Below, in pieces: positions 22,746 through 41,654 of a stretch of DNA of 64,000 bases. Source of the DNA: Candidatus Omnitrophota bacterium (GTDB taxonomy: Bacteria; Omnitrophota; Omnitrophia; Omnitrophales; Aquincolibacteriaceae); contig JAHFHG010000002.1 of assembly GCA_023247035.1 (NCBI GenBank), positions 12,090-76,089 of the forward strand. The letters run 5' to 3'. Each line of letters begins with the position of its first letter. Position 1 is the first letter of the stretch. The notes below the pieces were generated by a model. It saw only the letters and a list, made by a program, of their open reading frames with translations. It was not told the DNA's origin and ran no database searches. Position numbers and translations under genes: made by a program.

Positions 22746-24158
22746 ATGAATGAAAATTTCCACGCGGTTTTGATTGCCGGCACGCATTCCAGCGCCGGCA
22801 AGACCACCTGGTCGCTCGCTTTAATGGCGCTGGCCCGGAAAAAAGGACTCACGGTGCAGCCCTTTAAGGCGGGCCCGGATTACATCGATCCGGGTTTCCA
22901 TCATGAAATTTGCTCTCCGCGGCGTTCAAGAAACCTCGACCTCTTTTTCCTTTCAAAAGAAAAAATATCCGAGAGTTTTCATAACCGCTCTCGGGATACC
23001 GGCCTCGCGATTGTGGAAGGAGTCATGGGACTTTATGACGGCAAAGGGCCGAGCGGTACCGAAGGAAGCAGCGCGGAACTGGCGAAGATTTTGAGGCTTC
23101 CGGTTCTGTTAGTGATCGACGGCTCGAAAATGGCCGGGAGCGCGGCGGCATTGGTTTCAGGATTTAAAAATTTTGATCCCGCAGTTCATTTGGCCGGTGT
23201 TTTGATCAATCGCGTGCGGCCGGGGCATTTCCATTTGCTCAAGCGGGCGATTGAACTTTCGACGGGGCTCCCGTGTCTTGGATTCCTGCCCGAGGAGGAA
23301 GCCTTTTCGATTCCCGAGAGGCATTTAGGATTGACCCCCGCCGCTGAGACGCAAAATTGGAAAGTGAAAATCGACCGGGCCGCCTCTTTTCTTGAAAAGA
23401 ATTTGGATTGGGATGCTTTCCTCCGGATTTCCACGATTCCAAGACCGCCTGCGCAAGCTCAGCCTAAGGAGAAGGTTGAAAGGAATAAGTCTTCCCAAGA
23501 ACCGGTTAAGATCGGCGTGGCGCGTGACGCCGCTTTTTCCTTTTATTATGAAGACAACTTGGATCTCCTCAACGAGCAGGGAGCGGAGATTCTTTTCTTT
23601 TCTCCCCTTAAGGATCCTGTTTTGCCCGAAGGCTTGGATTTCCTTTATCTGGGAGGCGGATTCCCTGAAATTTACGCCCAGGAGCTCGCCAAGAATGAAT
23701 CGATGATAAAATCCGTCCGGGATTTTTACGCCCGGGGCGGTTTTATTTACGGCGAATGCGGCGGGCTTATTTATTTGGCGGAGGCTTTCTGCGATTCAGA
23801 CGGAACGGAATATCCTTTATTGAAATTGCTGCCGGGAAAAATCGCGATGACCCGCCGGTTGCAGAATTTCGGATACCATGAAATAAAAACGCAAACCGAT
23901 ACTTTCCTATTTTCCAAAAATACGGCGCTTCGATCTCATGAATTCCATTATTCGATTTGGAATCAGGAAGGAAACGCCTCTCCGGCGTATCAGATCGGAG
24001 ACCGGCCGGAAGGTTTTGCGTCCGGGCGGATTTTTGCAAGTTATCAGCACTTGCATTTTGGTTTGGATTCCCGGATTTTAGCCCGGCTGTTTGAAAGTTT
24101 AAAGGCTTCCCAAGATCTTAATCGCGGCAAACAAATAAAAAAGGAGGAAAAACAATGA
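22746..24158 (+). CDS. cbiA: Cobyrinate a,c-diamide synthase (CbiA/CobB)
   Basis: N-terminus AVLIAGTHSSAGKTT and a C-terminal GATase1 domain with a conserved Cys (GECGG). Confidence 0.85.
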   Translation: MNENFHAVLIAGTHSSAGKTTWSLALMALARKKGLTVQPFKAGPDYIDPGFHHEICSPRRSRNLDLFFLSKEKISESFHNRSRDTGLAIVEGVMGLYDGKGPSGTEGSSAELAKILRLPVLLVIDGSKMAGSAAALVSGFKNFDPAVHLAGVLINRVRPGHFHLLKRAIELSTGLPCLGFLPEEEAFSIPERHLGLTPAAETQNWKVKIDRAASFLEKNLDWDAFLRISTIPRPPAQAQPKEKVERNKSSQEPVKIGVARDAAFSFYYEDNLDLLNEQGAEILFFSPLKDPVLPEGLDFLYLGGGFPEIYAQELAKNESMIKSVRDFYARGGFIYGECGGLIYLAEAFCDSDGTEYPLLKLLPGKIAMTRRLQNFGYHEIKTQTDTFLFSKNTALRSHEFHYSIWNQEGNASPAYQIGDRPEGFASGRIFASYQHLHFGLDSRILARLFESLKASQDLNRGKQIKKEEKQ

Positions 24159-24505
24159 AATCAAAACAGACGAAGGCGGTTTTCATTGCGCTGGTTTTGT
24201 CCCTCGGATTTATTTCTAACTTTCCGCTTGCGGCGCAGGCGGCGGGGGAGGGAACGACGGGGGATTATTTCGTCGATATCGGAACGAAGTTCGGCAGGGG
24301 CCTTTGGAACACGGTTTCAAGTCCGGCCGAGATCCCCTGCACGATCACGGCGGATATTCAAAATCAGGGGGGCGTCGGATTTTTCAGCGGTTTTGGAAAG
24401 GGAATCTTGTTTATGCTGCGCCGCATTCTTGTCGGAGTCACCGAAGTCGGCACGTTTATCATTCCGATGGGCGCGACGATTCCTGCTGTTTGCAGTTCGA
24501 AATAA
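24155..24505 (+). CDS. Small exported hypothetical protein
   Basis: Signal peptide MKSKQTKAVFIALVLSLGFISNFPLAAQA. Sits between cbiA and cobQ. Confidence 0.4.
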   Translation: MKSKQTKAVFIALVLSLGFISNFPLAAQAAGEGTTGDYFVDIGTKFGRGLWNTVSSPAEIPCTITADIQNQGGVGFFSGFGKGILFMLRRILVGVTEVGTFIIPMGATIPAVCSSK

Positions 24506-24511
24506 ATACGA

Positions 24512-26041
24512 ATGAAAAAAGCTAAAAGCTTGATGGTGCTCGGCACGGGTTCCGGCGTCGGCAAGTCCTTTGTGGCCGCAGGGCTCTGCCGTTTGCTTTC
24601 CAATTCCGGATTTCGCACGGCCCCTTTCAAGGCGCAAAATATGTCCAACAATTCTTACGTGACGGAGGAGGGCGGAGAAATCGGCCGGGCCCAGGCCGTG
24701 CAAGCGGAGTGCGCCCGGGTCACGCCTCATACGGATATGAATCCGGTGCTTTTAAAACCGGCCTCGGACAACGGCTCTCAAGTGATTTTGCAGGGAAAAT
24801 CGATCGGGCATTTTAAAGCCCGCGAATTTTATTCTCAAAGGGAACGGATCGCAAAGGCCATCCGCGAATCTTACGAACGCCTGTCCGCTTCTTATGAAAT
24901 GATTATCTTAGAAGGCGCGGGAAGCCCGGCGGAAATCAATCTGAAAAAAAATGACCTCGTCAATATGCCGATGGCCCGGCTTGCAGGCGCGCGCTGCATT
25001 CTTGTCGGCGACATTGACCGGGGCGGTGTTTTCGCTTCCCTGATCGGGACGCTGAGCCTGCTGGAGGCTGAGGAACAGGAACGGATCGCCGGATTTGTGA
25101 TCAATAAATTCCGCGGCGATTTCTCGCTTCTTGAAGACGGCCTAGACTTTTTAGAGGAGCGGACGGGAAAAAAAGTCTGGGGCGTGCTTCCTTACGATCG
25201 CGATTTGTGGATCGAGGAAGAGGACGCGCTTGCGGTGGAGAATACGAATTTTCGTGATCCAGATAAACAAAAACTTGATAAACTTGATATCGCCGTCATT
25301 TTGCTGCCGCGGCTTTCCAATTTTACGGATTTCGAAATCCTCAAACACGATCCTTCCGTTCAGCTCCGTTATATCAAAAAACCCGAAGAAGTGGGGGAGC
25401 CTGACCTTTTAATTTTGCCCGGCACGAAAGCGACGCTTGCCGACTTGGCGTACCTTAAGGAAAAGAGATTGGATACAAAGATTCTGGATTTTGCGGATCG
25501 AGGCGGCAGGATCCTCGGCATTTGCGGGGGCTATCAAATGATGGGAACGCGCCTTCGTGATCCGCACGGTTTTGAGGAAAGGAATCAAGGGGAAATCGAA
25601 GGCCTTAAGCTGTTTAAAATGGCCACGGAATTTTATCCTGAAAAGGTGTTGCGAAAGGCCGAAGATTTTGTCGATTCGGAAATTTTCGGCGCGCGCGTTT
25701 CGGGAAAACTGGAGTGTTACGAAATCCATATGGGGCAAAGCACGCTTGAAGAGTCTTATCAACCGTTCGGAACTTGCGGCGCTATCCATCCTTCAGGAAA
25801 AATATTGGGCACGTATTATCACGGATTATTCGACAGCGGGGAATTTCGCGAGTCCTTTTTGAATGCGCTCGCTCAAAGCGCGGGGAAGCGGAGAGCCGGC
25901 GGAGGGCATTTACAATCTGCAGGCCAACTCAAGGAAATTCATTATGAGCGTCTCAGCCGGCTTCTTTTGCAGCGCCTTAATCTGAATTTATTAAGCGAGG
26001 CGTTGGGGATTACGGAATTTCATGCGGTTCCTCAGGCGTAG
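24512..26041 (+). CDS. cobQ: Cobyric acid synthase
   Basis: SLMVLGTGSGVGKS start and a GATase-like C-terminus (ICGGYQMMG). Confidence 0.9.
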   Translation: MKKAKSLMVLGTGSGVGKSFVAAGLCRLLSNSGFRTAPFKAQNMSNNSYVTEEGGEIGRAQAVQAECARVTPHTDMNPVLLKPASDNGSQVILQGKSIGHFKAREFYSQRERIAKAIRESYERLSASYEMIILEGAGSPAEINLKKNDLVNMPMARLAGARCILVGDIDRGGVFASLIGTLSLLEAEEQERIAGFVINKFRGDFSLLEDGLDFLEERTGKKVWGVLPYDRDLWIEEEDALAVENTNFRDPDKQKLDKLDIAVILLPRLSNFTDFEILKHDPSVQLRYIKKPEEVGEPDLLILPGTKATLADLAYLKEKRLDTKILDFADRGGRILGICGGYQMMGTRLRDPHGFEERNQGEIEGLKLFKMATEFYPEKVLRKAEDFVDSEIFGARVSGKLECYEIHMGQSTLEESYQPFGTCGAIHPSGKILGTYYHGLFDSGEFRESFLNALAQSAGKRRAGGGHLQSAGQLKEIHYERLSRLLLQRLNLNLLSEALGITEFHAVPQA

Positions 26042-26118
26042 GGGTTGCAATGCCCCCCCTGCGATCAGCGCAACGAATGTATTGCAATTTAGGATTATTG
26101 TTTTATGATTTTTAATCT

Positions 26119-26529
26119 ATGCCGACGAAAAAAGACGCTTACCTGATTATCGCGCACGGGACCCGGGATCCGGAAGGCCGGCGCGCCTTCGGGGAATTTC
26201 TCGGAAAATTCCGGGCGGCTTATCCGCACCGGCATATCCAGGGCGCATTTTTAAGTATGGGCGAACCGACGGTCCCTCAAGCCGTTGAGCGCTGCGTCCA
26301 GGAAGGGGCCCGGCAAATTTTCGTCATTCCTCTTTTGTTTTTTTCCGGCCGGCACGCAAAGGAAGATATCCCCCGCCGCATTCAGGAGGCGAAAAGCACT
26401 TACCCCGAGATTGACTTTCATTATGCGAGTCCGCTCGCCGAAAATCCCAAGTTGTTTTCACTCTTGGAAGAAAAGATGAAGACCTTAACACAAGGTAAGA
26501 TGAAAGGCAAATGCACCAACGCGGTATAA
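26119..26529 (+). CDS. cbiX: Sirohydrochlorin cobaltochelatase, short form (CbiX-like)
   Basis: AYLIIAHGTRDPEGR ... FVIPLLFFSGRHAKEDI. Confidence 0.7.
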   Translation: MPTKKDAYLIIAHGTRDPEGRRAFGEFLGKFRAAYPHRHIQGAFLSMGEPTVPQAVERCVQEGARQIFVIPLLFFSGRHAKEDIPRRIQEAKSTYPEIDFHYASPLAENPKLFSLLEEKMKTLTQGKMKGKCTNAV

Positions 26530-26559
26530 AGCGATGAGTTCAACCGCTGGAGGTGCAAG

Positions 26560-27106
26560 ATGGAGTATTCAAACCCTTGAGAGGAAAATGTTGGATGAAG
26601 ACCTGGAGTTTTTAGAAGCTTTGAGGACGTTCGGTCTATGGGATCAGTTTTGGAGGAACTGAGAGAAAAGGATGAAGTCGGTAGAGGGTTTGAAGAGCGT
26701 TCCCGGGATCGGGAAATTCTTCGCGATGCCCATACGCCACGAGATTGAGGGCATCGATTGATTTCAGACATCCGATAAGCTTTGTGCTTATGCAGGATGG
26801 GTCTCCTCGACTTGCGGCATCATCAAGCAAGGGAATAAATGCTTACGGTGTGCGCTTATTGAAGCGGTGATTCCGGCCATTAGAGTCGATGCGCAGTTTA
26901 GAAGTTATTACGAATCCATGAAGGTGAAGAAAGGCGCCAACGCAGCGAAGGCGGCGACAGCAAGAAGACTGCTGAGAATCATTTGCCGGATTTGGAAAGA
27001 GAAAAGATTGTATCGAACACAATCACTTAATGGACCGCTCTCCTCACCTCCTAAAGGTCCCGGATTTATGGGGAGCGTTCTTGGACATAGGTTAGAGGAT
27101 CCGTGA
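26560..27106 (+). mobile_element. IS110-family transposase remnant: C-terminal Transposase_20 region only, with at least one frameshift; the DEDD N-terminal domain is absent
   Basis: LKSVPGIGKFFAMPIRHEIEGID then, after a frameshift, FQTSDKLCAYAGW...GANAAKAATARRLLRIICRIWKE; typical IS110/IS116/IS902 C-terminus. Confidence 0.6.
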
Positions 27107-27247
27107 ATCGGATTTTACGATGTGCGGCGCTGATGCGGGCACGAATAGAAGGATGATCAGCTTTTATGAGGGGATCAAAGCAACAAAAGCCAATGCAGCC
27201 CCTTAAAAAATAATCTTGCATTTGGCTTTCATAGAAGGAGACAAGGC

Positions 27248-27442
27248 ATGAGCGAATCGAAAAAACCAAAATATGAACCTCCGAAAGTTTACCGCGTTGT
27301 GCTGAACCACGATCAGGCGATCCTTTCGGGCTGCTCCACAGGGACGACGAGTATTTCCAACACGACCGGCGCGAATTGTAATACCAGCTGCCGCCGAAGC
27401 ACGTCCACCGCGACCAGTTCCAACTCATCGGCTTCCTCGTAA
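27248..27442 (+). CDS. Candidate RiPP precursor peptide (64 aa; leader MSESKKPKYEPPKVYRVVLNHDQAIL, core rich in Ser/Thr/Asn/Gly with 3 Cys)
   Basis: AAGGAG Shine-Dalgarno 7 nt upstream. Stop lies 8 nt before the kinase gene. Low-complexity STNC core. Confidence 0.5.
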   Translation: MSESKKPKYEPPKVYRVVLNHDQAILSGCSTGTTSISNTTGANCNTSCRRSTSTATSSNSSASS

Positions 27443-27450
27443 AACCGGCG

Positions 27451-28326
27451 ATGCGGAATAAACGCTTTGAGATCGCCAATATTCCGTTTAGTTTCCTTCA
27501 CGATTCCTTTCATATTACCGACTGGCCGAACCCTTTTTATTTCCCGTTTCAAACTCAGAAGCCCGAGTTGATCAGGATACAAACCCGCCGCCTGAGAAAT
27601 ATTCCCTCCCGCGCTTCTTTTTCTGACCTGCGCTTCGACGGCGGTGCGCATTGGCGCCTTTTCGAGAATCACGGGCAATTCGAAGTCCATCTTTTCGATC
27701 CCAAAACCAAAGCGCACGACCGGACGGCGCGTATCTCGCCTGATTTTACGGAAGTGGAGCTGATCCATTGGAAAAAGTCTCATTTCCTGAACTGGATCCT
27801 GCGTCCGCTTGCCGAGATTCTGCTCGTCCATTATCTTGCGTCCCGGGAAGGTTTGCTGGTTCACGCAGCGGCGGTGCGGGACGGCGATCAGGCCTATCTT
27901 TTCGTGGGCCGCTCCGGCGCCGGAAAAACCACGATTTCAACGTTTTGGGCCGGCGTCGAGGGCGACGTTTCTGTTTTGGGAGACGAGCGGCTCGTGGTGC
28001 GGCGCGAGGCCGGCGAATGGTTTGCGTACGGCACTCCCTGGCCGGGAATGGGTTTCCGCTGCAACAATGAACGCGTGCGGATCAGCCGCGTTTTTTTTAT
28101 CCGCCACGGGAGTGAGCATGAAATCATCGAGCAGGGTCCCGCCCTTTATTTTAATGAATTGTTCACGCAGGTTTTTTCCTCTTTTTGGAACCTTGAGGCG
28201 CTCGATCAAATCACGCGGACTTGCCAGAAAGCTGTGGAGGAAATTCCCTGCCGCCTGCTGGCCTTCGCGAAAGCGCCGGATGTGACCGGGTTTGTCAGGA
28301 ATTTTAACTGCGCCGCGCAGCCTTAA
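27451..28326 (+). CDS. HprK-related P-loop serine kinase-like protein
   Basis: AYLFVGRSGAGKTTIS...VLGDERLVV parallels the HprK C-terminal kinase core (Walker A plus acidic motif). Confidence 0.6.
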   Translation: MRNKRFEIANIPFSFLHDSFHITDWPNPFYFPFQTQKPELIRIQTRRLRNIPSRASFSDLRFDGGAHWRLFENHGQFEVHLFDPKTKAHDRTARISPDFTEVELIHWKKSHFLNWILRPLAEILLVHYLASREGLLVHAAAVRDGDQAYLFVGRSGAGKTTISTFWAGVEGDVSVLGDERLVVRREAGEWFAYGTPWPGMGFRCNNERVRISRVFFIRHGSEHEIIEQGPALYFNELFTQVFSSFWNLEALDQITRTCQKAVEEIPCRLLAFAKAPDVTGFVRNFNCAAQP

Positions 28327-28334
28327 ATCCGCTT

Positions 28335-29378
28335 ATGGAAAATTTGCCGCAGGTTTCCGTTCATGAGTTCAATGACCGTCTCCGCGCCCGCGCAAAAGAG
28401 CTGCGGATCCCGTTTCAGGCCTCGCTGGAATTGACCTATGCCTGCAACTTTCGCTGCGTCCATTGTTTTAATCCGCACCACGAATCGAAGGACGACCTTG
28501 GAACCGAATTTTGGAAATCCGTTCTTGGCCAGCTTGCCGGCGAGGGCTGTCTCGTCGCGCTTTTTACCGGCGGCGAGCCGCTCGTGCGCAAAGATCTTTT
28601 TGATCTGCTCGCTCACGCCCGCAATTTGGGAATGCAGTGTATTCTCAACACCAACGGCCTTCTGCTCGATCCGGAAAAAATCCAGAGGCTCGAGGAATCG
28701 GGTCTGACCTTGCTGGCGGTTTCCGTTTTCGGGATGAGCGTTCAAAGTTACGAATCGGTGACCCGCATCCCCGGATCGTTCGCGCGCTTTTTGCTCCACG
28801 TGGAGCAGCTCAGGCGGTCCCGAATCCCGCTCCTTTTTAAAATGCCGGTGATGCAAATGAATTACCAGGAAGTGGAATACGCCAAGGATTGGTTTTCAAG
28901 CCGGGGACTTCTCCTCAAACACACTTCGGAGATCCAGCCTCGCGCGGACGGCGATCCGGAACCTTTGCAGCACCGTATTTCAAGCGCCCAAGCAGCGGAT
29001 TTGAGATTCCGTTACGAAGAAGATTTAGGATGCGGAAAACGAAGCCCCCGGAAAGATGAATTTTTTGATTGCCAATGCGGGAAAAGCGCGGTCGCCATTA
29101 CCCCGCGCGGCGAAATGAATCTGTGCGTCTCTTTCCATTATCCGCGCCACTCGCTTTTAAAAGGAAGTGTCCGGGAGGGCTGGAAAAGGCTTGTGGATTT
29201 TGCGGCAGATTTCAAACCCTCCGAAAAATACGAGTGCCCGGGCTGCCGGTTGTCTCCTTACTGCTCGCGCGGCGCAATGGATTCGTGGCTGAATACGGGC
29301 GATTTCAATCCGTGCGTCCCTTACTTTAAGGAAGTCGCAGGCCGGATTGAAGGCGCCCTGAAAAAAAGGAGTGAATGA
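28335..29378 (+). CDS. Radical SAM enzyme with a C-terminal SPASM domain (peptide-modifying maturase class)
   Basis: TYACNFRCVHCFN (CxxxCxxC) near the N-terminus. C-terminal CQCG...CPGCRLSPYC auxiliary-cluster Cys pattern. Confidence 0.8.
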   Translation: MENLPQVSVHEFNDRLRARAKELRIPFQASLELTYACNFRCVHCFNPHHESKDDLGTEFWKSVLGQLAGEGCLVALFTGGEPLVRKDLFDLLAHARNLGMQCILNTNGLLLDPEKIQRLEESGLTLLAVSVFGMSVQSYESVTRIPGSFARFLLHVEQLRRSRIPLLFKMPVMQMNYQEVEYAKDWFSSRGLLLKHTSEIQPRADGDPEPLQHRISSAQAADLRFRYEEDLGCGKRSPRKDEFFDCQCGKSAVAITPRGEMNLCVSFHYPRHSLLKGSVREGWKRLVDFAADFKPSEKYECPGCRLSPYCSRGAMDSWLNTGDFNPCVPYFKEVAGRIEGALKKRSE

Positions 29379-29385
29379 AGAAAGT

Positions 29386-29850
29386 TTAGGGCGGGCTTCC
29401 GGAATGCAATCGCCTTAAAATCCGCGAAGGCGCGTCGAGAAACCAGGGATTGGTCGGTGAAAGGAGGGCCTGCCAAAAGCGAAGAAGGAACGGCCGTTTT
29501 TCCAGGTCGAAAATTTTTTCTCCTCTTTGAACCTGCGTGATCTTTCCCACCAGCGGAGAAATTCCGGCGCGTCCTTTGAAGAAAGGGACAAAACAGGTGT
29601 TCGCATGAAAATTTTCACCGGATATTTTTCTCACCGCGACATCGCCGAATCGAAGGCTCGATTCGTCTGTTTTCTTGATCGTAACGAGGTCGCCCCGGCG
29701 CACCACCGGCCACATGCAATTTCCAAAGAGTTTCATTTGAACGGAGCCGGAAAATTCCAATTCCGAAAGAAGAATCGAGGCCTGCAGGGGTTGGGAAAGG
29801 GCCTTTTCTTCAAGAGGCGGATTAAGGGACGGCACGGCCAAATTTAGCAC
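29386..29850 (-). CDS. S24/S26-like (LexA/signal-peptidase fold) peptidase with Cys in place of the nucleophile Ser
   Basis: GNCMWPVVRRGDLVTIKK ... FGDVAVRKI mirrors G(D/N)SMxP...GDlvlV...GDivVaK of S24 peptidases. Convergent with the rSAM gene, gap 8 nt. Confidence 0.5.
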   Translation of the reverse strand: MLNLAVPSLNPPLEEKALSQPLQASILLSELEFSGSVQMKLFGNCMWPVVRRGDLVTIKKTDESSLRFGDVAVRKISGENFHANTCFVPFFKGRAGISPLVGKITQVQRGEKIFDLEKRPFLLRFWQALLSPTNPWFLDAPSRILRRLHSGSPP

Positions 29851-30020
29851 GGCGGAGCCGGCTTCCGCAACGGATCTTTTGCCTTCGCCGGATTTTCAAT
29901 TCTTTCTAACATTCAGGATCATTTTCAGTCTTCGGCTCAAAAGCGCATTCTGCGCATTTGATCTTACAAAACGAACCGCTATAATTAATGAAACACGGGC
30001 GGCAGGAAATCGAACCCTTC

Positions 30021-33000
30021 ATGAAAACCATCTCTTTATTCCAGAAACCCAGCGCGATTTTTTTAATCTTTTCTTTAAGCCTTTCCCAAAGTCCCTCGTA
30101 TGCCGCTGCCGCGCCGGCGCCTCCGCTGGCGGTTTCTGAGCGCTCCCGGGCGCTTCTTTTTCTTCCCGAAGAACTTGGCGAGATCGAAGAATCCTTTCAG
30201 GGATCGAACGGAAAAACCGTGATCTTCATTCAAGACGCCCACGATTCCCTCGAAGCGCAGGAAAATATCGCCAAGACTATTCAATACCTGGTGGACAAGT
30301 ACGGGGTGAAGACTGTTTTTGAAGAAGGCTATGAAGGTCCTGTTCCCACGGATGATTATTTCGGCTTCATCAAAGATCCGTCCGTCAAAGAGAAAGTTTC
30401 TTACTTTTTATTAGATAAACTCCGCCTCGGCGGCGCGGAATACGCACACATCAACCGCTTTCACAACTTGTCATTCCCGCACGCGTTAAGCGGGAATCCA
30501 AATTTTAGGTCCCCGATAGAAACATTCGGGGACGACAAAAAACGTGTCGATTTCAAACTGATTGGGGCAGACAATATAAAGTTACATCTTGAGAATATCG
30601 ATTGGTATCGCCAGAATGCCAAGCATAAAGAAGAAACTGGAAGAGATTTGACTATTCTGCAAAATGAAATCGACAAACTTGCCAACCGGTATTTTCCTAA
30701 GGAACTCAAAGAATGGATGAAGCTTAAGAAAAGGTTTGATGAGAAACAAATTGATCTTTTGGATTATTTAAAGCGGACAATACAAGTCCCTCATCGAGAA
30801 TCCATAGACCATAAACTTTACCCCAATCTTTCGCTTCTCCTTCAAGCAGAACACACTCAAGACAAAGAAGTCCTAGAGAAAGTGAAAACCATTGAAGCCA
30901 AGATTCTTTTCGAGGAAATCGATTCGTTGGAAAACGCCGCCGCCGGCCCATTCCTACAAAATGGAACAGACCGGAAAATCTTCCAATATTACAAAGGAAT
31001 AAATCTTCTCAAAAGACTCAACGAGATTGAGATTACGCCCGCTGAATATGAGGCGGTCAAAGCGCAGCTTCAACATCTCAGCACCCAGGAACTGGCCCAA
31101 TTTATTGTCCAGCAAACGAATAAATCCATCGTCCTTTCCAAACGATGGGAGGAAAATATTGAAAGCGCCATTCGGTTTTATCAAATCTCACGAGCCAGAG
31201 ATTCTGCGATTGCCGAGCGACTGAATGATTTTCTTAAAAATCATGATGAAAAAGTGGCTGTCCTTGTCTTTGGAGGATTTCATAAAGAGAGGATTACAGA
31301 ATTGTTGAGAAAGAAAGGACTCCCTTACTATATAGTTTCTCCTCGAATAATGAACGTCGACAATAAGCATAAGGAACTCTACGCGCATTTAATGACAAAG
31401 GGATATTCGCTTTTCCCCGTTGCGGCAAATGTTGCTAAGGCAGCGCGTTTAGCAGGAGAGATCGAGCTCGCGGAAATGGGCGGCCAGAACGCAAAGTCAG
31501 AACTCCGAGCGTACCATGCGGCAATCACTAACATTGTTTCTTCATTGGTCTCCAATCGACCCAATCAAACATCTCGAGAACTGCTCGATCGTTTGATTAA
31601 CGGACGATTGATACACGAAGTTCTAAAAGTATCCAAACAAGCAATGGGAAAACGCCGATCCGAACTAAGAAGTAAAGAATCGGATTTTGCTTTAAGAGAA
31701 AAACGCCGTGATTATCTCAAGCGGCTAATGAATCAAGAAAATAAGCAATGGACGTTGGATGAGTTAGCAAACGCTACAGGTCAATCAACAGGACAGATTG
31801 TTAAGGATTTGCGATATTTGAATCTTTTTAAGCCCTCAAATCACCTAAATTTAGATGCCGAACGCATAGACCGAAGAAGACAGTGGGGATTACCAGATTA
31901 TTCTGACCTCGATAAGCTTTTACCTCGCTTGGATGAAGAATTTGCATATCTTCATGGAGAGGCTCTTTTTAATTTTTTAGCTCAAAAAGGCCGCGAGAAT
32001 GACCCCGTAAGCATGGAAGCGGCTATTTACGGCTTCTATAAATTTGTTGGAGAAAAAACCCCCGGTAATATTTCAGAACGAGGGCGATTGCTTGGTGAAC
32101 GCATTTATCACTATCTGAGGTTAAGAGAAAGTATGCCTTCTGACGGCCTGCGTCGAAATCCAGATGTTGAGTTCGATATTGGTATGGCAGAAAAAAGGAA
32201 GCGGGAGTCACGGCTTCCAAAATTTGGAAATATAAAAACAAGGAGGCCGAAGAAGAAAGTTTCTTTTTCGGAAGCACAGCAAATTATGGAAGAAAAAAAT
32301 TTACATTTAGATCAATCAATCGCATTCGTTGCGTTGTCCACGGCAGAAAATGAAACTTTATTTCGAGCGCTTAAATCAAGCGAATTGGAAGAGTCCGAGC
32401 GAAGACAAATTTATGATTATTTGATTCAGAAGCATGTAGGGTTTGTCGGCTGGTGGATCAAACATAAGATGCCGCCTTGGTATTTTGAACATTTTAACTT
32501 CGAAGAACTTTTAGCTTTTGGCCAAATTGGCCTTATGAAAACGATTGAAAGATATGATTTCAAAATGGGGCGGCGCTTTACCAGTTATGCCGAATGGTGG
32601 ATTCGCCATTCTATCCAACGCTCCATAGAGAAAAAAACACATAAATCTTTAAATGTCAGGCGTGATGAGGATAGCCCGGAGTGGATTGATACTTTGTCGG
32701 ATTCAAAAGATCAATCGGAAGAAGAATTATGGCCGGAACTATTTTCCAGTCTTAGGCATCTCGATAGTCGGTCTCGCATTATGTTGAGCTTGCGTTACGG
32801 GATTGGATCAGTAAGAACATACAATCTTCGAGAAATTGGCTTAATGTTTGGTGTAACTCACGAGCGTGTTAGACAAATTACAGAAAGAGCAGTTGAAAAG
32901 TTAAAACGCTTGGTTGGAAAAGTAACGGTTGATGATTCTTCTCAAGACCATACCGATGTTTTTTTATTCGAGGCTATGGAGTTAGAGCCAGAGAATCCAC

Positions 33001-36000
33001 TTTTCAAGCCACTAAGCCATCTCGGAGTTAAAAAGCTTGACCGGATTCGAGAAGTTCTTTCAAAAGAAAATCGCTTCAACTCGGAAATGCTGATGAGGAT
33101 TTTTAGGTCACGCGGCCAGTATGTGATAGCTCCATCGAAATATTTATGGGGTCTGCCTGCGGGTTTGCTTGAAACCGGCGGTGACACTTCCCATCATTTT
33201 GGATCGTGGAATGAAGAAGGTGGAAGACATAACATAGATTTACAAAAACCCAAAAAGATTCATTTTTCCAACGCACTCACAACCACAACCGAAATCATAA
33301 AAAGGTATCCTTATGCTCGGTATCTACTGCCTCCTGAAGAACAACTATTGCTGGCCTCTCAGGCTCAAGGAGAAAGGAGCCGATTCTATGCTTTGGGTAA
33401 GACATTGCAGTGGATTGGACTTTCTCCGCAAGATTTTATTATTTGGCTTGTTGAAAATAAAAAATATTTAGATCAAGAAATCGTTGATTTTATCGCACAA
33501 TCACCACTTTCTAAACGTCCTCGATACGAGCTAACGGCATCCCGCACAGGTGAGCATCTTCATGGGTCTTTACCAAGACCACGTACTGACCGAAAGATTG
33601 CAACGAAATGGATTTCAACTGAAGAAACCAGCTACACGCTAATCACACCTGCTGAATTGGCGGACCGCTTCCCTTCTGCCGAACCCTTCTTGGATAAACT
33701 CGAACCTCAATTACTTCTTGAGGCGGATTCGTCCGAGCATGATGAAATTAAATACTATTCTTTTGTTGAAGATGGACATCATACAAAAATTCTAATAAGG
33801 ATCAATAAAAGAACCGGCGAAATCCAAAGTCCTCATGATGGCCCAATCGGTTTTAGAAAGGAAATTTTGGATTTTGTAAGAAAAGGTGAGTTTGGCAATA
33901 AGCAAAAGCCTCCTGTTACCGCGCCTTTTGAAATGCACGCCGGATCACGGCATTTTATTTATTTCGGAACGATGGGGAAAGGTTCCATTGGCTTGAGTAT
34001 GAAGGGAGTGAAACCTAACACGCGTGTATCAGGAAGCGCTGTTCATTTGGAGCATGCTCCTCTTGGAATGGGGCCGCAATGGCTTTTAAGACTCACTGTT
34101 CATTTGAAAAGACCAAGAGTTGTTTATGCGAGATTCAAACGCTCTGGAACCCGCTTAGGTTTATTTAAAAAATCCCCTCAAACTTATATCGGAGCTTTTG
34201 TCAAACTTGGGAAATGGAATCAGGAAAAAATCCAGCCATTCCCTGAAAATGAAATCGAAATTACCGCGAGTTCCAAAGGACGTTTGGAACTTGGAAGCAA
34301 TGGCGATGGAGAGCGGATTGTTATTCACTTACCACTTTTACCCAAAGATCATAAAGTTTTAATTCGAAAAGTCCGCAATCAAGAAGATGGACAACAGCTC
34401 TTGGTCGTTCATACCCGCAATCCTGCTTATCGATATAGAAAATTTTATTATCGATTCACGAATCGTGGCTATCACACCCGAAGATACCACGAGGAAGTAA
34501 AGGACATAAGTCCCACGGCTAGAAGGAAGCTTAGCTATGAAGAAATTGCAAAGGCACAAGAAGATTTGAGAAGCCGAGAAGGAGCAGAGGCAAACTTATG
34601 GCGCGATCCCGAAAAGATTGCTTATGAGCTTGACCTATTCGACGCTTATTATCTTGTTTCGGAAGTTCAAAGAATAAACGCTTCTTTAGTTGCTCAAGAC
34701 ACAGCTAATTTGCCGCCTCTCGAAATAGACACCTCAAAGATTGTTGAGCTGCCGACTCCGGCTTACGATCAAGTAGGAGACGTTTATCATGCTGTTCCAG
34801 AATCTTCTGAGCGACCGGAGAAATCCGAGAAACCAGTCAAACCTAAACCATTATCCCCTTTAAGACTTGCTCAAAAAAGATTGGAAGAAGCTGAAAAAAA
34901 AACATTAGCTGAACGTTTGAAGGTTGGCTTTCGAGATGTGGGAGAAAGCGGTCGGTTTTTAGATTTGGGCGCAGGAAAGGGTGATTTAACCGCTGAACTT
35001 GCTGGACAATTTCAAGGTGGGGTTGCAGTCGAAATAAATGAAGATCGAGTCGAGCAGCTACGGCAGAGAAAAATTCCAAATCTTAATATTTGGGACATGG
35101 ATTTTTTTGATTATATGGAGATGGCGATTAAAGGGAATCAGCTTTTTGATGCGATTCTCATTTCACATGCTCTTTTATTCATTAAATTTGATCGCCGGGA
35201 CGCTTTCTTAAAAGATGTTCTATCAAGACTTAAGCCGAATGGAAAATTAGCGATTATTTTAAATGGCAGTAAAATTGAAGAGAGAAACCAAGTTCAGTTG
35301 CGAGCAAAGCTCATGAGAAAGCATGAGGCGCTAGCAGGAGACAACCCATCAACCAATATTGAAAGCAAACTGCGACAAATCGGCTATGGGGTACAAACCG
35401 AAAGAGTCAGAATCATTCATGAGACTCCTTCCAGAGACGAAATGATTTCTATTGTAAAAGCAATATTGCCACGCGAAGACCGTTTTCGTCTGTCGAATAT
35501 CACTGGATTTGTCGATTCAGTCCTGAAATTACCTGGAGAAGAAAAGTACCGCCTCTATGTTGATCAAGATATTTTATGGATAACACATCCTCGTTCTGAG
35601 GTTAGAAAGCAAGAAAATGTATTTGCAATGGTGTCTGTCAACGATTGGCAAAACTTTAATCGAACTAATCAGAATACCGAGGCTACGGCCACCAAAGCCG
35701 TCGTTTTTATAGATGGTTCCGTCGATAGCAAAGATGCCAAGCAGCGGGCGGAAGAATTAGCGGTGCTGGCCGCAGGTAATCCGAACCGAACGATTGTGGT
35801 TTATAATGCGGACAAAGTTTTTAAAAATAAAGGCGGTGAAATGGCGGAACTTTTAAAGTCGTTTGGTCTCGCCAATGTCAAGTTCGCTGCGGGTGAGTTG
35901 TCCGAAGCCCTCAAGCCCTACCAATTCCGGGATCAAGTTGATTTGGTGCACTACTCGGCAAGCGAAGAGGAGGCTGTTTTTGTTCAAGCCTCCGTTGGGA

Positions 36001-36209
36001 AATGGCTGGCGCAAAAACTGACCCGATTTGTCGGAGGGCCCGGCGCCTTAGGATACGGAATAAAATATTTGCAGGCTGTGAAATTGGGCAAGCCTGTGGA
36101 AGGTATCACGCCCGAGAACGGCTACTACGCCGTTTCCCCAGGCGCTTCGGAGTGGATGCGAAGCCTTTATCGAGCTCGGTTCGCGACCGTTTTCGCTCAA
36201 GCGGCGTGA
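30021..36209 (+). CDS. Giant multidomain protein (about 2060 aa): signal-peptide-like N-terminus, TraB/GumN/TIKI-like domain, sigma-70 region 2 plus region 4 module, central unknown region, class I SAM-methyltransferase motif, unknown C-terminus
   Basis: Uninterrupted 6.2 kb frame in AT-rich DNA. Motifs IFIQDAHDS...VLVFGGFHKERITELLRKKGLPYYIV; GQIGLMKTIERYDFKMGRRFTSYAEWWIRHSIQRSI; LREIGLMFGVTHERVRQITERAVEKL; FLDLGAGKGDLT. Confidence 0.7.
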   Translation: MKTISLFQKPSAIFLIFSLSLSQSPSYAAAAPAPPLAVSERSRALLFLPEELGEIEESFQGSNGKTVIFIQDAHDSLEAQENIAKTIQYLVDKYGVKTVFEEGYEGPVPTDDYFGFIKDPSVKEKVSYFLLDKLRLGGAEYAHINRFHNLSFPHALSGNPNFRSPIETFGDDKKRVDFKLIGADNIKLHLENIDWYRQNAKHKEETGRDLTILQNEIDKLANRYFPKELKEWMKLKKRFDEKQIDLLDYLKRTIQVPHRESIDHKLYPNLSLLLQAEHTQDKEVLEKVKTIEAKILFEEIDSLENAAAGPFLQNGTDRKIFQYYKGINLLKRLNEIEITPAEYEAVKAQLQHLSTQELAQFIVQQTNKSIVLSKRWEENIESAIRFYQISRARDSAIAERLNDFLKNHDEKVAVLVFGGFHKERITELLRKKGLPYYIVSPRIMNVDNKHKELYAHLMTKGYSLFPVAANVAKAARLAGEIELAEMGGQNAKSELRAYHAAITNIVSSLVSNRPNQTSRELLDRLINGRLIHEVLKVSKQAMGKRRSELRSKESDFALREKRRDYLKRLMNQENKQWTLDELANATGQSTGQIVKDLRYLNLFKPSNHLNLDAERIDRRRQWGLPDYSDLDKLLPRLDEEFAYLHGEALFNFLAQKGRENDPVSMEAAIYGFYKFVGEKTPGNISERGRLLGERIYHYLRLRESMPSDGLRRNPDVEFDIGMAEKRKRESRLPKFGNIKTRRPKKKVSFSEAQQIMEEKNLHLDQSIAFVALSTAENETLFRALKSSELEESERRQIYDYLIQKHVGFVGWWIKHKMPPWYFEHFNFEELLAFGQIGLMKTIERYDFKMGRRFTSYAEWWIRHSIQRSIEKKTHKSLNVRRDEDSPEWIDTLSDSKDQSEEELWPELFSSLRHLDSRSRIMLSLRYGIGSVRTYNLREIGLMFGVTHERVRQITERAVEKLKRLVGKVTVDDSSQDHTDVFLFEAMELEPENPLFKPLSHLGVKKLDRIREVLSKENRFNSEMLMRIFRSRGQYVIAPSKYLWGLPAGLLETGGDTSHHFGSWNEEGGRHNIDLQKPKKIHFSNALTTTTEIIKRYPYARYLLPPEEQLLLASQAQGERSRFYALGKTLQWIGLSPQDFIIWLVENKKYLDQEIVDFIAQSPLSKRPRYELTASRTGEHLHGSLPRPRTDRKIATKWISTEETSYTLITPAELADRFPSAEPFLDKLEPQLLLEADSSEHDEIKYYSFVEDGHHTKILIRINKRTGEIQSPHDGPIGFRKEILDFVRKGEFGNKQKPPVTAPFEMHAGSRHFIYFGTMGKGSIGLSMKGVKPNTRVSGSAVHLEHAPLGMGPQWLLRLTVHLKRPRVVYARFKRSGTRLGLFKKSPQTYIGAFVKLGKWNQEKIQPFPENEIEITASSKGRLELGSNGDGERIVIHLPLLPKDHKVLIRKVRNQEDGQQLLVVHTRNPAYRYRKFYYRFTNRGYHTRRYHEEVKDISPTARRKLSYEEIAKAQEDLRSREGAEANLWRDPEKIAYELDLFDAYYLVSEVQRINASLVAQDTANLPPLEIDTSKIVELPTPAYDQVGDVYHAVPESSERPEKSEKPVKPKPLSPLRLAQKRLEEAEKKTLAERLKVGFRDVGESGRFLDLGAGKGDLTAELAGQFQGGVAVEINEDRVEQLRQRKIPNLNIWDMDFFDYMEMAIKGNQLFDAILISHALLFIKFDRRDAFLKDVLSRLKPNGKLAIILNGSKIEERNQVQLRAKLMRKHEALAGDNPSTNIESKLRQIGYGVQTERVRIIHETPSRDEMISIVKAILPREDRFRLSNITGFVDSVLKLPGEEKYRLYVDQDILWITHPRSEVRKQENVFAMVSVNDWQNFNRTNQNTEATATKAVVFIDGSVDSKDAKQRAEELAVLAAGNPNRTIVVYNADKVFKNKGGEMAELLKSFGLANVKFAAGELSEALKPYQFRDQVDLVHYSASEEEAVFVQASVGKWLAQKLTRFVGGPGALGYGIKYLQAVKLGKPVEGITPENGYYAVSPGASEWMRSLYRARFATVFAQAA
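30470..30536. repeat. Second copy of the double-hairpin unit, located inside the coding sequence of the giant ORF (read through in frame)
   Basis: TTGTCATTCCCGC...GCGGGAATCC...GTCCCCGATAGAAACATTCGGGGACGAC aligns with 14389-14445. Confidence 0.5.
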
Positions 36210-36270: not shown

Positions 36271-36696
36271 CTAATTCAACTTCACGACGTCGCTGACGCG
36301 GTCGCGGTGAATCTTCACAATGAAGGCCCCTGCGGCGAGGCGAGGCTCGATCGTGCGTTCCGTGATTTTATCCACGTAGGGAAGATACCCTTTGTAGTAA
36401 ACAAAATACCAGTCCTGCGAAACGTTCTGCTCAATCGTGCGGATTTCCTGCGGCTGCCCCAAAAGACTCAGGACCTCGTTAGCGCTTTTGCCTTTGAGGA
36501 ACAACTTTCCATTGGCGATGATCCGCCGGTTGGTCATTTGATCCCTGCCGAACTGGTCGCCTCCCTTGAAAAAGGTGTAGGGCTTCTCCTGCAGGGGCTG
36601 CCAAATCCCGATGCCCGCGCAGCCGCTTAAAAATAAAACAAAACAAAAAAGCAAAAGGGAATGCAGAACTTGTAGATTCGAAATTGGGGTCTTCAT
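36271..36696 (-). CDS. Small lipoprotein, hypothetical
   Basis: Lipobox LFLSGCAG after a hydrophobic signal. Confidence 0.5.
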   Translation of the reverse strand: MKTPISNLQVLHSLLLFCFVLFLSGCAGIGIWQPLQEKPYTFFKGGDQFGRDQMTNRRIIANGKLFLKGKSANEVLSLLGQPQEIRTIEQNVSQDWYFVYYKGYLPYVDKITERTIEPRLAAGAFIVKIHRDRVSDVVKLN

Positions 36697-36841
36697 TTTT
36701 ACTGCTAAGCATATCGGCGTTTTTGAGGAGGCCTTAAATCAGATCCCGCGCCCCAGCCGTCCGTTTATTCTGCTAGACGCTTGCCTGAGGCGCTTGATAT
36801 GATTGATCCTTGAACATTCAAGGATCGCTTCAGAGAGGCCT

Positions 36842-38914
36842 ATGAGTTCTCATCATCCGGATCCCGCCAACCGTTTGGCGAAAGAAAAAAGCCCTTACCT
36901 TCTCCAGCACGCCCAAAATCCCGTAGATTGGTATCCGTGGTCGGAAGAGGCCTTCGAAAAAGCAAAGCGCGAGGGCAAGATGATCTTCCTTTCCATCGGC
37001 TATTCGACCTGCCACTGGTGCCACGTGATGGAACACGAATCCTTCGAGAATCGGGAAATCGCCGCGCTCTTGAACCGGCATTTTGTCTCGATCAAAGTCG
37101 ACCGCGAAGAAAGGCCCGATATCGACCAGATTTATATGACCGCGATCCAGACGATGACCGGATCGGGAGGCTGGCCGCTGACCGCATTCCTGACTCCGGA
37201 AGGCCGGCCGGTCACCGGCGGGACCTATTTTCCTCCCGAGGACAAGTGGGGCCGGATGGGAATGAAAACCCTCCTGCCGCGGCTCGCTCAAATGTGGGAA
37301 GAAAAACGCCGGGAAATGGAAACGGCCGGAGAGCAGCTGGCGGGAATCCTTCAATCCCAGCCCTCCCCGTCTTCTCCAATGATCCTGAGTGAAGAAATTT
37401 TTACCGTCGCGCACGGCCAGTTTGCGGCAAGCTTCGATCCCGAGCACGGCGGCTTCGGAAAGGCGCCCAAGTTTCCCCGCCCGCACGATTTGTCCTTCCT
37501 TCTCCGCTATTGGAAAAGGACTTCCGGCGCGCGCGAACTTGAAATGGTGAAGACGACTTTAAATCAGATGGCCCAAGGCGGGATTTACGATCACCTCGGC
37601 GGCGGATTCCACCGCTATTCCACGGACGAGGCCTGGCTCGTCCCTCATTTTGAAAAGATGCTTTACGATCAGGCGCTTCTGGCCCGGACCTACCTTGAGG
37701 CGTACCAGGCGGCGCGAATCCCGGAATACGCGGACGTGGCGCGCGATATTTTCAATTATGTCCAGCGGGATATGACGGCTCCGGAAGGCGGATTCTATTC
37801 CGCCGAAGACGCGGACAGCGAAGGCGAAGAGGGGAAGTTTTACGTCTGGCGCCCGGAAGAAATCCGGAAAATCTTGGGCGAAGAAGACGGGAAAATTTTC
37901 AATGAATTTTATGGAATCACGGACGCCGGGAATTTTGAGCACGGGATGTCCATCCTGCACCTCACTCAGCGCATTCCGGAATTCGCGGCGCAAAAAGGGA
38001 TACCGGTTGAGGAACTGAAAAGAAAACTCGTCGAGGGCCGGCGGAAACTTTTTGAATCCCGCCGCAGAAGAATCCCGCCGCATAAGGACGATAAAATCCT
38101 CACGGCCTGGAACGGGTTAATGATTTCTGCGCTGGCGCTCGGGGCGCAAATCTTAGATGAGCCTTCTTATTCCGCAAGCGCCGGCCGGGCCGCGGATTTT
38201 ATCCTTACAAGCCTCCAGCGCGGAGGAAGGCTTTGGCGCCGCTTCCGCCAAGGCGAGGCTGCGGTCCCGGCGTTTCAGGAGGATTACGCCTTTTTTGCCT
38301 TGGGCCTCCTTGATCTTTATCAGGCCACTTTTGAAATCAAATGGTTTGAAGAGGCGAAACGGCTGACGGAAGACATGATCCGTTTTTTCTGGGATGAAAA
38401 AGCCGGCGGATTTTTTTACACGGCATCAGACAGCGAACCTTTGATCGCCCGGATGAAGGAATATTACGACGGGGCCGTCCCTTCCGGGAATTCCATCGCC
38501 GCCCTTTTGCTTTTAAGATTGAGCCACATGACGGGCGGAAGCTCTTTGCGGGAAACGGCCGAAAAAATTTTTCATTCCAACGCCCAGGCCCTGGAAAAAT
38601 ATCCGATGGCTTTTCCTCAGTTCTTGATCGCGGTCGATTTTGCGCTCGGCCCGGCGCGGGAGATTGTTTTGGCGGGAAAAAAAGACTCCCCGGATTTTCA
38701 AAATTATCTGCGGCTGCTGCGGAGCCGTTTTGAACCGCGCCAGGTCGTCTTGCATCATCCGGAAGATGAAACGGCCGGGAGGATCGAAAATTTGGCGGGT
38801 TTTATCAAGGATCAGATTGCTCCGGCGGGCAGGACCGCGGTTTATGTCTGCCGGAACCGGACGTGCCGGCGGCCGGCCGCGACACTCCAAGAGCTTGAGA
38901 AGATATTATCGTAA
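36842..38914 (+). CDS. Thioredoxin-domain protein of the DUF255 / YyaL (spermatogenesis-associated protein 20-like) family, with a C-terminal six-hairpin glycosidase-like region
   Basis: [17 protein letters not shown]...[16 protein letters not shown]. Confidence 0.8.
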
Positions 38915-38945
38915 ACCCATTTTGAATAACTCCGGCGGCCGATAG

Positions 38946-40079: not shown

Positions 40080-40101
40080 CCTTAAAAGATCCTATAAAGA
40101 G

Positions 40102-40980: not shown

Positions 40981-41654
40981 TGCGGATTCTTCTTGTGGAA
41001 GATGAAAAGAAAATGGCGAGTTTTATCGAGCGCGGGCTTAAAGAAGAAGGCTACGCGGTGGACATTGCCCTGGACGGGGAGAAAGGTTTGGAATACGTAT
41101 CGATCAACGAATATGACGTCATTATTTTGGATATTTTGCTGCCCAAAATCAACGGCTTGGCCCTTTGCGAAAAAATCCGCAAGGCCGGTTCCCGACTCCC
41201 CATCCTGATGGTGACGGCCCGGGATTCGGTCCAGGATAAAATCCGCGGCCTGGATCAGGGGGCCGACGACTATTTAACGAAGCCCTTTTCGTTTGACGAG
41301 CTCCTGGCCCGCATCCGGGCCCTTTCAAGGCGCCCGCGCGAGCTCCAGGAAAAATCCGAACTCCGTTCGGGGGACCTTTCTTTAAATCTCCTGACTCGGC
41401 GTGTGTTGATCGGTAAAAATGAAGCGGCGCTTTCTCAAAAGGAATTTGCGCTTTTGGAATACCTGATGAAGCGCAAAGGCGCGGTCGTTTCCCGCACTCA
41501 AATCGCAGAGCACGTTTGGGACATCCATTTTGATCCGATGAGCAACACCATTGATGTCTACATTAATTTCCTGCGCAAAAAAATCGACGGGGATCGAAAA
41601 CAAAGCCGGATTGAAACCCTTCGAGGGGCGGGCTACCGCCTGTTAGCGGAATGA
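40980..41654 (+). CDS. OmpR-family response regulator (REC plus winged-helix Trans_reg_C)
   Basis: MRILLVEDE...DVIILDILLP...LTKPF and a C-terminal LSQKEFALLEYL...GAGYRL. Confidence 0.85.
   Translation: MRILLVEDEKKMASFIERGLKEEGYAVDIALDGEKGLEYVSINEYDVIILDILLPKINGLALCEKIRKAGSRLPILMVTARDSVQDKIRGLDQGADDYLTKPFSFDELLARIRALSRRPRELQEKSELRSGDLSLNLLTRRVLIGKNEAALSQKEFALLEYLMKRKGAVVSRTQIAEHVWDIHFDPMSNTIDVYINFLRKKIDGDRKQSRIETLRGAGYRLLAE

Follow-up and report, generated by a model that had tools for sequence, protein, structure and literature searches.

A small peptidase-fold protein with a cysteine at the catalytic-serine position, encoded beside candidate peptide-maturation genes in a Candidatus Omnitrophota genome

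Introduction

The LexA/signal-peptidase clan (MEROPS SF) contains, to our knowledge, only serine enzymes. One of its S26 members, SodX, the maturation protease of nickel superoxide dismutase, has one dedicated substrate, whose short N-terminal leader it cleaves off. The leaders of lasso peptides carry a YxxPx(L/V) motif, which is bound by PqqD-like domains of the RiPP recognition element (RRE) type (RiPP, a peptide that is made on the ribosome and modified post-translationally). For the SynChlorMet (SCM) cassettes, which comprise ScmC (TIGR04249), a PqqD homologue, ScmE, and ScmF, we know of no peptidase listed and no precursor identified in the NCBIfam family descriptions. The C-terminal Ser of a lasso precursor receives a phosphate from an HprK-family kinase, and the NTP-transferase-like protein PsmN is needed for the addition of a hexose to that phosphate (PMC6993621). 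Here, we describe a 154-aa protein encoded at 29386..29850 on the minus strand of a 64-kb stretch of DNA from a Candidatus Omnitrophota bacterium (64,000 nt of contig JAHFHG010000002.1, referred to as the window). The protein has the LexA/signal-peptidase fold with Cys45 in the place of the catalytic Ser, and its gene lies beside genes that resemble a peptide-maturation set.

The reading that we favor, and hold to be somewhat more probable than all its competitors combined, is that this putative S26B-derived Cys-type mini-peptidase is soluble and cytoplasmic, has a rebuilt Cys45/His82 center, and serves as the thiol-type leader or processing peptidase of an uncharacterized peptide pathway. Throughout the text, the loci and proteins of its relatives are designated by L and P numbers, respectively.

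Results

The gene and its relatives

The open reading frame (ORF) begins with a GTG codon. A second GTG at 29835 would yield a protein of 149 aa and matches the ATG start of the closest homologue, P0002. An exhaustive profile search, which covered 5.8 billion proteins, recovered a tight clade of 17 proteins, 16 of which are full length (136–154 aa, 31–73% identity); the seventeenth, P0001, is an N-terminally truncated call of the window ORF itself. Below this clade and separated from it by a score gap, the same search found about 140 small relatives. At E < 1e-10, the relatives number more than 250. Further searching for clade members gave one locus in a genome scan and one locus, already known, in a metagenome scan. 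When the start Met is not counted, 14 residues are invariant in the clade (G43, C45, M46, P48, D54, D70, H82, F87, G102, R109, R119, N134, P135, and L138). In addition, comparison with the 73%-identical copy in L002 gave a ratio of nonsynonymous to synonymous substitution (dN/dS) of 0.145. Because there are 17 homologues with 14 invariant residues and the dN/dS ratio is low, the ORF is a genuine gene under purifying selection.

Fold assignment

An earlier reading made from the DNA letters alone, referred to as the sequence-only reading, had proposed a LexA/signal-peptidase fold from the motifs GNCMWP, GDLVTIKK, and GDVAVRKI, all of which are present, at residues 43–48, 53–60, and 69–76, respectively. 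Taken alone, the window protein resembles S24 and S26 peptidases no better than chance. It matched Pfam Peptidase_S24 (PF00717) at E = 0.07 with 13.3 bits against a gathering threshold of 23.3, did not match PF10502, and reached E = 6e-4 and 19.6 bits with TIGR02228 (archaeal/ER-type signal peptidase I; ER, endoplasmic reticulum), for which the cutoff is 51.85. A three-sequence profile searched against the PDB found human SEC11A/C at E values of ∼0.4 to 0.8, with Cys45 on the Ser of SGSMEP.

The homology was established only through the wider relatives, which act as intermediates. When the clade alignment (A3) was compared with 63 wider relatives (A5) by hhalign, the two matched over 129 columns (probability 99.9%, E = 7e-33), with GNCMWP on GnSMxP. 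In turn, the profile of the wider relatives reached SEC11A at E = 2e-12 in an alignment that takes in Ser56, His96, and the TKGDNN box. Moreover, five of the ten wider relatives scanned exceed the TIGR02228 cutoff (P0016, P0018, P0020, P0049, and P0027), and two of these bear Cys (P0049, 63.6 bits; P0027, 53.0 bits). An AlphaFold model built from 136 sequences has a predicted local distance difference test (pLDDT) score of 87.3 and supersedes an earlier AlphaFold2 model built from three sequences (pLDDT 66.8). Overall, the LexA/signal-peptidase β-fold is confirmed for the window protein and, as judged from its alignments, the protein is a descendant of the Sec11/SipW/archaeal S26B (Ser-His-Asp) branch. 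The proposed fold was thus borne out by way of intermediates. As for a direct match to the S24 and S26 families, the Pfam and NCBIfam scores fell below their cutoffs, whereas the alignment of Cys on the catalytic Ser held.

The structural matches of the peptidase include LexA, UmuD, and lambda cI. Together with the weak Peptidase_S24 match, these could be taken to indicate a self-cleaving regulator of the LexA/UmuD type (S24). We consider this very improbable, as the protein has no DNA-binding domain and no conserved Lys, its sequence affinity is to S26B (SEC11, TIGR02228) and not to S24, and its gene context is biosynthetic.

Catalytic residues

Cys45 (codon TGC, 29716..29718, minus strand) falls on the catalytic Ser of S24/S26 peptidases in every alignment that was made, in agreement with the sequence-only reading, which had noticed a Cys at the nucleophile position. 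His82 (codon CAT, 29605..29607, minus strand) is the invariant His of an FHANT motif, followed two residues later by Asn84 (codon AAC, 29599..29601, minus strand). Cys45 and His82 are the sole invariant Cys and His in the clade alignment; both are retained in 13 of 13 aligned members and in all 16 full-length members, and the homologues thus carry Cys consistently. Around His82, the clade reads [FL]-H-[AV]-[NY], with Asn84 nearly invariant and Tyr as the exception. The strand on which His82 lies is the one that carries the catalytic His of Sec11-type enzymes (His96 of SEC11A), and the spacing from the nucleophile to the His is likewise similar, with 37 residues in the window protein, 37 to 40 in its relatives, and 40 in SEC11A.

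The general base had first been sought in the Lys of VRKI, within the framework of a Ser-Lys dyad. This part of the earlier proposal had to be abandoned. No Lys is invariant in the clade: Lys75 of VRKI occurs as Lys, Gln, Arg, Ala, Glu, His, and others, Lys60 is variable, and every other Lys varies as well, which rules out a Ser-Lys dyad. Moreover, the lineage to which the protein is assigned by its alignments is the Ser-His-Asp branch S26B. The conserved partner of Cys45 is His82, which is the likely general base.

The nucleophile column of 136 aligned relatives contains either Ser (95) or Cys (41) and no other residue. On a neighbor-joining tree, Fitch parsimony gave at least 16 switches between Ser and Cys, a figure that, with so rough a tree, is to be read as many rather than as an exact count. 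Such interchange is expected of a nucleophile that works with a His and is out of keeping with a structural role or with metal binding.

Cellular location and domain fusions

None of the 17 clade members has a transmembrane segment, and the maximum 19-residue Kyte–Doolittle mean is 0.86 in the window protein and at most 1.05 in the clade. Of the 15 wider relatives that were sampled, P0020 alone comes near the borderline (1.73), and a membrane anchor was found in none of the 32 proteins checked. The window protein has no N-terminal hydrophobic segment; an amphipathic helix (residues 20–34) occupies the region where the anchor usually sits, with no other domain before the core. At the other end, the C-terminal helical element SP(A/T)NP(Y/W) is conserved. 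As it lacks a transmembrane segment, the protein is not a Sec signal peptidase, and for the same reason, the enzyme should act in the cytoplasm. Those of its Ser- and Cys-type relatives whose source names were consulted are labeled "signal peptidase I" or "S24/S26 family peptidase" in their source records. The label is probably wrong for these relatives, because they have no membrane anchor and occur in peptide-maturation operons.

Several relatives are fusions in which an S26-like domain is joined to NTP_transf_5 (P0115, P0118, and P0124), to a GNAT acetyltransferase (P0029, P0042, P0070, P0073, and P0126), or to a methyltransferase (P0019). These fusion partners are tailoring enzymes of a type that is active alongside or just after leader removal.

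Peptide-maturation genes in the window

Three genes on the plus strand, all within 2.2 kb of the peptidase gene, make up a set that resembles a peptide-maturation cassette. The first (27248..27442) encodes a precursor-like peptide of 64 aa, is preceded by a strong ribosome-binding site (GAAGGAG), and has a homologue in L009. The second (27451..28326) encodes an HprK-related P-loop protein, which is ScmC-like and presumed to be a peptide kinase, with weak matches to TIGR04249, TIGR04352, and TIGR04355. The third (28335..29378) is a maturase-like gene of the radical S-adenosylmethionine (rSAM)/SPASM type, whose product matches Pfam Radical_SAM at 6e-21 and SPASM weakly. Only 7 nt separate the stop codon of the rSAM gene from the end of the peptidase gene, so that the adjacency of the two that had been reported from the sequence stands.

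The window peptide (MSESKKPKYEPPKVYRVVLNHDQAILSGCSTGTTSISNT...SSASS) carries the leader motif K-Y-E-P-P-K-V, contains three Cys, and ends in Ser after a Ser/Thr-rich tail; its L009 homologue reads MEKKTEKKKYESPKVHRVALNHDQALLSGCSTGTTSLSNN...SAASS. Likewise, the ScmC-like protein is 53.5% identical to the ScmC-like protein of L009, and the rSAM protein is 42% identical to the L009 rSAM protein that follows ScmC. Neither window protein reaches the SynChlorMet equivalog cutoffs (17.1 bits versus 125 for the ScmC-like protein and ∼52–55 bits versus 400 for the rSAM protein), and the rSAM protein also has PqqE/AhbD-like NCBIfam matches below the cutoffs.

A further feature of the peptide is the sequence ...A-I-L-S-G-C..., in which LSGC (codons 27326–27337) fits a lipoprotein lipobox in both the window and L009. 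A Sec or lipoprotein signal was considered for the precursor and judged unlikely. The leader is polar and has, by eye, no hydrophobic core, and the likeness to a lipobox would be a coincidence or a reflection of small −1/−3 residues. A publication on lipidated RiPPs concerns true Lsp substrates.

Neighborhoods of related peptidases

HprK-like (ScmC) genes occur within 10 kb of the peptidase gene in 6 of the 11 loci whose flanks reach 6 kb or more. In most cases, they are accompanied by rSAM genes and by a short peptide with a YxxPxV leader and Ser at its C-terminus. The set of peptide, HprK-like, and rSAM genes recurs near related peptidases of other lineages (L009, L013, L016, and L017), and homology links the ScmC-like proteins of L009, L011, L013, L017, and the window to one another.

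The arrangement in L009 extends 4 to 10 kb downstream of the peptidase and consists of PqqD, TPR, PqqD, two rSAM genes, the precursor, the ScmC-like gene, and a third rSAM gene. Here, the homologues of the window precursor, ScmC-like, and rSAM genes lie 8.5 kb from the Cys-peptidase, and the precursor is directly upstream of the ScmC-like gene. At its edge, the L004 locus contains the start of the same cassette, with a TPR gene and a PqqD that is 70% identical to the PqqD of L009. In three acidobacterial loci with Ser-type peptidases (L013, L016, and L017), the genes are arranged on one strand in the order ScmC-PqqD-rSAM/SPASM-(54–56 aa peptide)-...-peptidase, with the peptidase last. In L011, from a Bacteroidales relative, the peptidase gene shares an overlap with an HprK-like gene; an ABC exporter and a PMT_2-like protein come next, and rSAM is absent.

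Besides the window peptide, short peptides are encoded next to the ScmC-like genes of L009 (10187–10387), L013 (7548–7718), L016 (1652–1822), and L017 (2872–3036). All five carry the motif K-x-Y-x-x-P-x-V, have two or three Cys, and end in Ser; the window and L009 peptides have the Ser/Thr-rich tail in addition. This peptide family provides candidate precursors for the ScmC cassettes.

A separate observation concerns a protein of 79 to 84 aa that consists of a LexA-type DNA-binding domain alone and is encoded on the minus strand in L004 (5798–6052), L007 (6532–6771), and L008 (2730–2969). Its gene adjoins an NTP_transf_5 gene, ∼3 to 4 kb from the peptidase-fold gene, and the protein is probably a local regulator.

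Flanking regions of the window

Upstream of the precursor gene, the window carries cobalamin genes (22746–26529), namely, a CobB/CbiA-like amidase, a CobQ-like ORF (named from its sequence only), and CbiX. The ∼700 nt between cbiX and the precursor gene (26530–27247) hold short broken ORFs only. By eye, a remnant of an IS110-like transposase seemed to be present at ∼26640–27106, where a 79-aa ORF (26867–27106) looked like the C-terminus of an IS110-type transposase; this impression was supported neither by Pfam nor by tblastn against plasmids and was rejected. No Rfam family, the cobalamin riboswitch included, reached its threshold in the 64 kb, and a promoter and terminator scan of the window was uninformative.

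On the other side of the peptidase gene, a 2073-aa ORF (29988–36209, plus strand) unites, in a single reading frame, a ChaN/Tiki-like region with sigma-70 regions 2 and 4 and with a SAM methyltransferase domain. The distance from the end of the orf141 homologue to the upstream flank of the peptidase gene is ∼60 nt in L002 and 6.4 kb in the window. Because this spacing differs, the giant gene represents an insertion in the window or a deletion in L002. Further on, positions 36271–43120 are syntenic with 1849–8622 of L006, both containing the orf141 homologue and genes for DUF255/thioredoxin, a DAO oxidoreductase, a cation-efflux protein, a response regulator, and a histidine kinase. The synteny implies that L006 comes from a related organism, in which the Cys-peptidase adjoins a GT-C-like gene and not an rSAM gene.

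Discussion

Evidence against a leader peptidase and the alternatives that it raises

The reading of a Cys45/His82 leader peptidase has to be set against a number of observations that speak against it, some from the site itself and others from its genomic surroundings. In both MAFFT and hhalign alignments, Asn84 occupies the column of the canonical S26B catalytic His, with His82 two residues earlier. In addition, the Asp-bearing TKGD...D hairpin is missing between His82 and Gly102, not only in the clade but also in the intermediates. As for the surroundings, the window contains no PqqD gene, and tblastn found neither PMT_2-like nor NTP_transf_5 genes in the 64 kb. The peptidase and rSAM genes do not form one operon, since they are convergent and not codirectional. 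Direct adjacency of the two occurs only in the window, and in L002, which holds the closest homologue (73%), the downstream sequence has no similarity to the window. Because the window and L002 have both lost the setting of GT-C and NTP_transf_5 genes and differ downstream, the rSAM adjacency is specific to the window. Moreover, ScmC or rSAM genes are absent from the sampled flanks of L001, L006, L007, and L015, and L012, a sampled wider relative, has no ScmC-, rSAM-, or peptide-type genes within 8 kb. Finally, the peptidase gene shares a 4-nt stop/start overlap with a PMT_2-like gene in L001, L004/L005, L007/L008, and L015, and the two genes are adjacent in L006 and L009. For most members of the clade, the translationally coupled partner is this PMT_2-like membrane glycosyltransferase.

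The missing Asp hairpin and the displaced His would also be found in a noncatalytic protein resembling SipA, which would bind peptides or act as a scaffold, hold the precursor in its groove, and keep Cys45 and His82 for structure or for a metal. With no PqqD/RRE gene in the window cluster, another leader-binding protein would be useful. However, a Ser or Cys nucleophile (136 of 136) and a His are kept throughout the relatives, whereas SipA has lost its catalytic residues, and free interchange of Ser and Cys is typical of a nucleophile, not of a residue that binds a metal or supports the structure. A metal site takes more than two ligands, and no further Cys or His is invariant. A scaffold is thus an unlikely explanation. 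An intermediate clade of P0014, P0015, P0017, and P0019 has H-x-Y or H-x-H at the positions of His82 and Asn84, and in the wider relatives, the TKGD...D hairpin is present with an invariant Asp.

A different function is suggested by the company that the clade genes keep. Their commonest neighbor is the multipass PMT_2-like gene of the GT-C type, and an NTP_transf_5 (PF14907) gene lies divergently upstream in L004, L007/L008, L009, and L010. Sugar-nucleotide epimerases, C-methyltransferases, glycosyltransferases, and an amine oxidase are encoded around them. The protein could be a cell-envelope glycoconjugate enzyme that works with the PMT_2-like GT-C protein and NTP_transf_5 on a glycoprotein, a carrier, or the GT-C partner itself. 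The rSAM adjacency in the window would then be an accident of rearrangement, to which the different surroundings of L002 on both sides would conform. However, L009, and probably L004, has a RiPP-type cassette on the same island, and distant Ser-type relatives are found inside operons of ScmC, PqqD, rSAM, and peptide genes without a GT-C gene. The run in L011, which joins HprK-like, peptidase, ABC exporter, and PMT_2-like genes, suggests one pathway rather than two, and the window copy is under purifying selection with no GT-C gene in the 64 kb. We therefore rate this alternative as the strongest of the four considered here, and yet as improbable.

The Cys-His pair, the invariant Arg109 and Arg119, and the tight coupling of the gene to glycan-handling membrane proteins could also belong to a thiol transpeptidase or ligase. 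Its thioester would be resolved by an amine or a hydroxyl, as in sortases and butelase, so that the peptide is cyclized or attached to a glycan, lipid, or carrier, and thioester intermediates do favor aminolysis. However, the contexts in which Ser-type relatives are found are of the same kinds as those of the Cys-type relatives. This points to a shared, ordinary hydrolytic chemistry, and neither an identifiable acceptor substrate nor direct evidence speaks for a transfer reaction. We regard this as less probable still than a scaffold.

The leader-peptidase reading is favored by the module of peptide, HprK-like, and rSAM genes in L009, L013, L016, and L017. The idea of a leader peptidase for the neighboring precursor, which the sequence-only reading had put forward, gained comparative support from this recurrence and is plausible on the evidence of gene content, although the adjacency to an rSAM gene on its own turned out to be peculiar to the window.

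Proposed mechanism

In the mechanism that we envisage for such a leader peptidase, an extended peptide would be bound in the substrate groove of the fold. Cys45 would replace the nucleophilic Ser, with His82 as the general base, and cleavage would proceed via a thioester acyl-enzyme. Relative to the ancestral site, the center would have been rebuilt by moving the His two residues along the strand, leaving Asn84 in the ancestral His column, and by losing the Asp hairpin. The two-residue offset of His82 would keep the same face of the strand. An engineered Ser90Cys variant of the Escherichia coli leader peptidase reportedly remains active.

The likeliest substrate would be the ribosomal peptide encoded 2 kb away (27248–27442), with a predicted cut at the leader/core junction near ...AILSG|C.... 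The residues before the first core Cys are small, reading ALA|C in the acidobacterial peptides and LSG|C in the window, and the site was placed here because small −1/−3 residues fit the specificity of S26. By analogy with the lasso kinase, the HprK-like (ScmC-type) protein probably phosphorylates the C-terminal Ser, and the rSAM/SPASM enzyme probably crosslinks the Cys residues. Glycosylation of the product in the sister genomes is probably the work of NTP_transf_5, sugar-nucleotide enzymes, and PMT_2-like GT-C membrane proteins; for NTP_transf_5 and the sugar genes, this is by analogy with PsmN. What we infer from these comparisons is the catalytic activity itself, which residue is the base, what the substrate is and where it is cut, and each step of the chemistry.

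Significance

A more far-reaching proposal is that Cys45 and His82, possibly with Asn84, define the first natural thiol lineage in the LexA/signal-peptidase clan. Its members would be cytoplasmic leader peptidases of an uncharacterized class of rSAM peptides, possibly RRE-dependent. ScmC-type kinases, NTP_transf_5, and GT-C enzymes would add phosphate and sugar to the C-terminal Ser of these peptides. We advance this combination tentatively and consider it less likely than not. In a literature search with incomplete coverage, we found no publication on a natural Cys-nucleophile member of the clan, on the function of ScmC cassettes, or on their association with this peptidase. If the proposal is true, a natural and repeatedly evolved Cys-His version would make this a clan of mixed nucleophiles, like the chymotrypsin clan, and would offer a clean system for studying how a Ser-His-Asp center converts to Cys-His. 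In addition, the ScmC-type cassettes would gain a linked protease and candidate precursors with a Y-x-x-P-x-V leader, Cys, and a C-terminal Ser, and this linkage makes the pathway testable by heterologous expression.

Comparison with known systems

The window protein is most similar to the Sec11/SipW/archaeal signal peptidases I of S26B (SEC11A, PDB 7p2p), with which it shares the fold, the GxSMxP...GD...GD(I/V)VVF core, the nucleophile column, and a His on the same β-strand. The wider relatives keep the full Ser-His-Asp signature of S26B. However, the window protein has Cys for Ser, its His two residues earlier, no TKGD...D hairpin, and no anchor, and its context is that of peptide maturation, not secretion. 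SodX is comparable in that several wider relatives match TIGR02754 (e.g., P0049 at 3.8e-10), whereas the window protein does not match this family; SodX, moreover, uses Ser as its nucleophile and differs in substrate and in context.

With regard to pathway, the closest parallel is found in the lasso peptides paeninodin and pseudomycoidin, in which the B2 protease, a PqqD-like B1, an HprK-type kinase, and PsmN provide a PqqD/RRE protein, a Cys protease, a kinase for the C-terminal Ser, and an NTP-transferase-like sugar addition. The peptides of the ScmC loci resemble lasso precursors in their Y-x-x-P-x-V motif and C-terminal Ser. However, B2 has a transglutaminase fold that is unrelated to the peptidase described here, and rSAM/SPASM enzymes are present in place of the lasso cyclase, an Asn-synthetase homologue. 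On the favored reading, the peptidase would, by analogy, take the role that in the lasso pathways falls to B2, a Cys protease to which it is unrelated. The SynChlorMet cassette likewise has ScmC-like and PqqE-like rSAM/SPASM counterparts among the neighbors of the peptidase, and the set of PqqD, rSAM, and ScmC is found in L009 and the acidobacterial loci. Every score falls short of the equivalog cutoffs (17–46 bits versus 125), which makes the genes related to SynChlorMet but not members of it. The peptidase, like the candidate precursors, would be a new component.

Three further systems bear on the active site. SipA, a signal-peptidase-like pseudoenzyme of Streptococcus pyogenes (PDB 4n31), has no catalytic residues and is membrane-anchored and extracellular, whereas the window clade keeps its nucleophile and His strictly. 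Proteases of the picornain 3C type also carry a Cys in the fold of a Ser protease, although this fold is that of chymotrypsin. The engineered Ser90Cys leader peptidase is an artificial variant of a Ser-Lys enzyme, whereas the Cys of the window protein is natural, recurrent among its relatives, and paired with a His.

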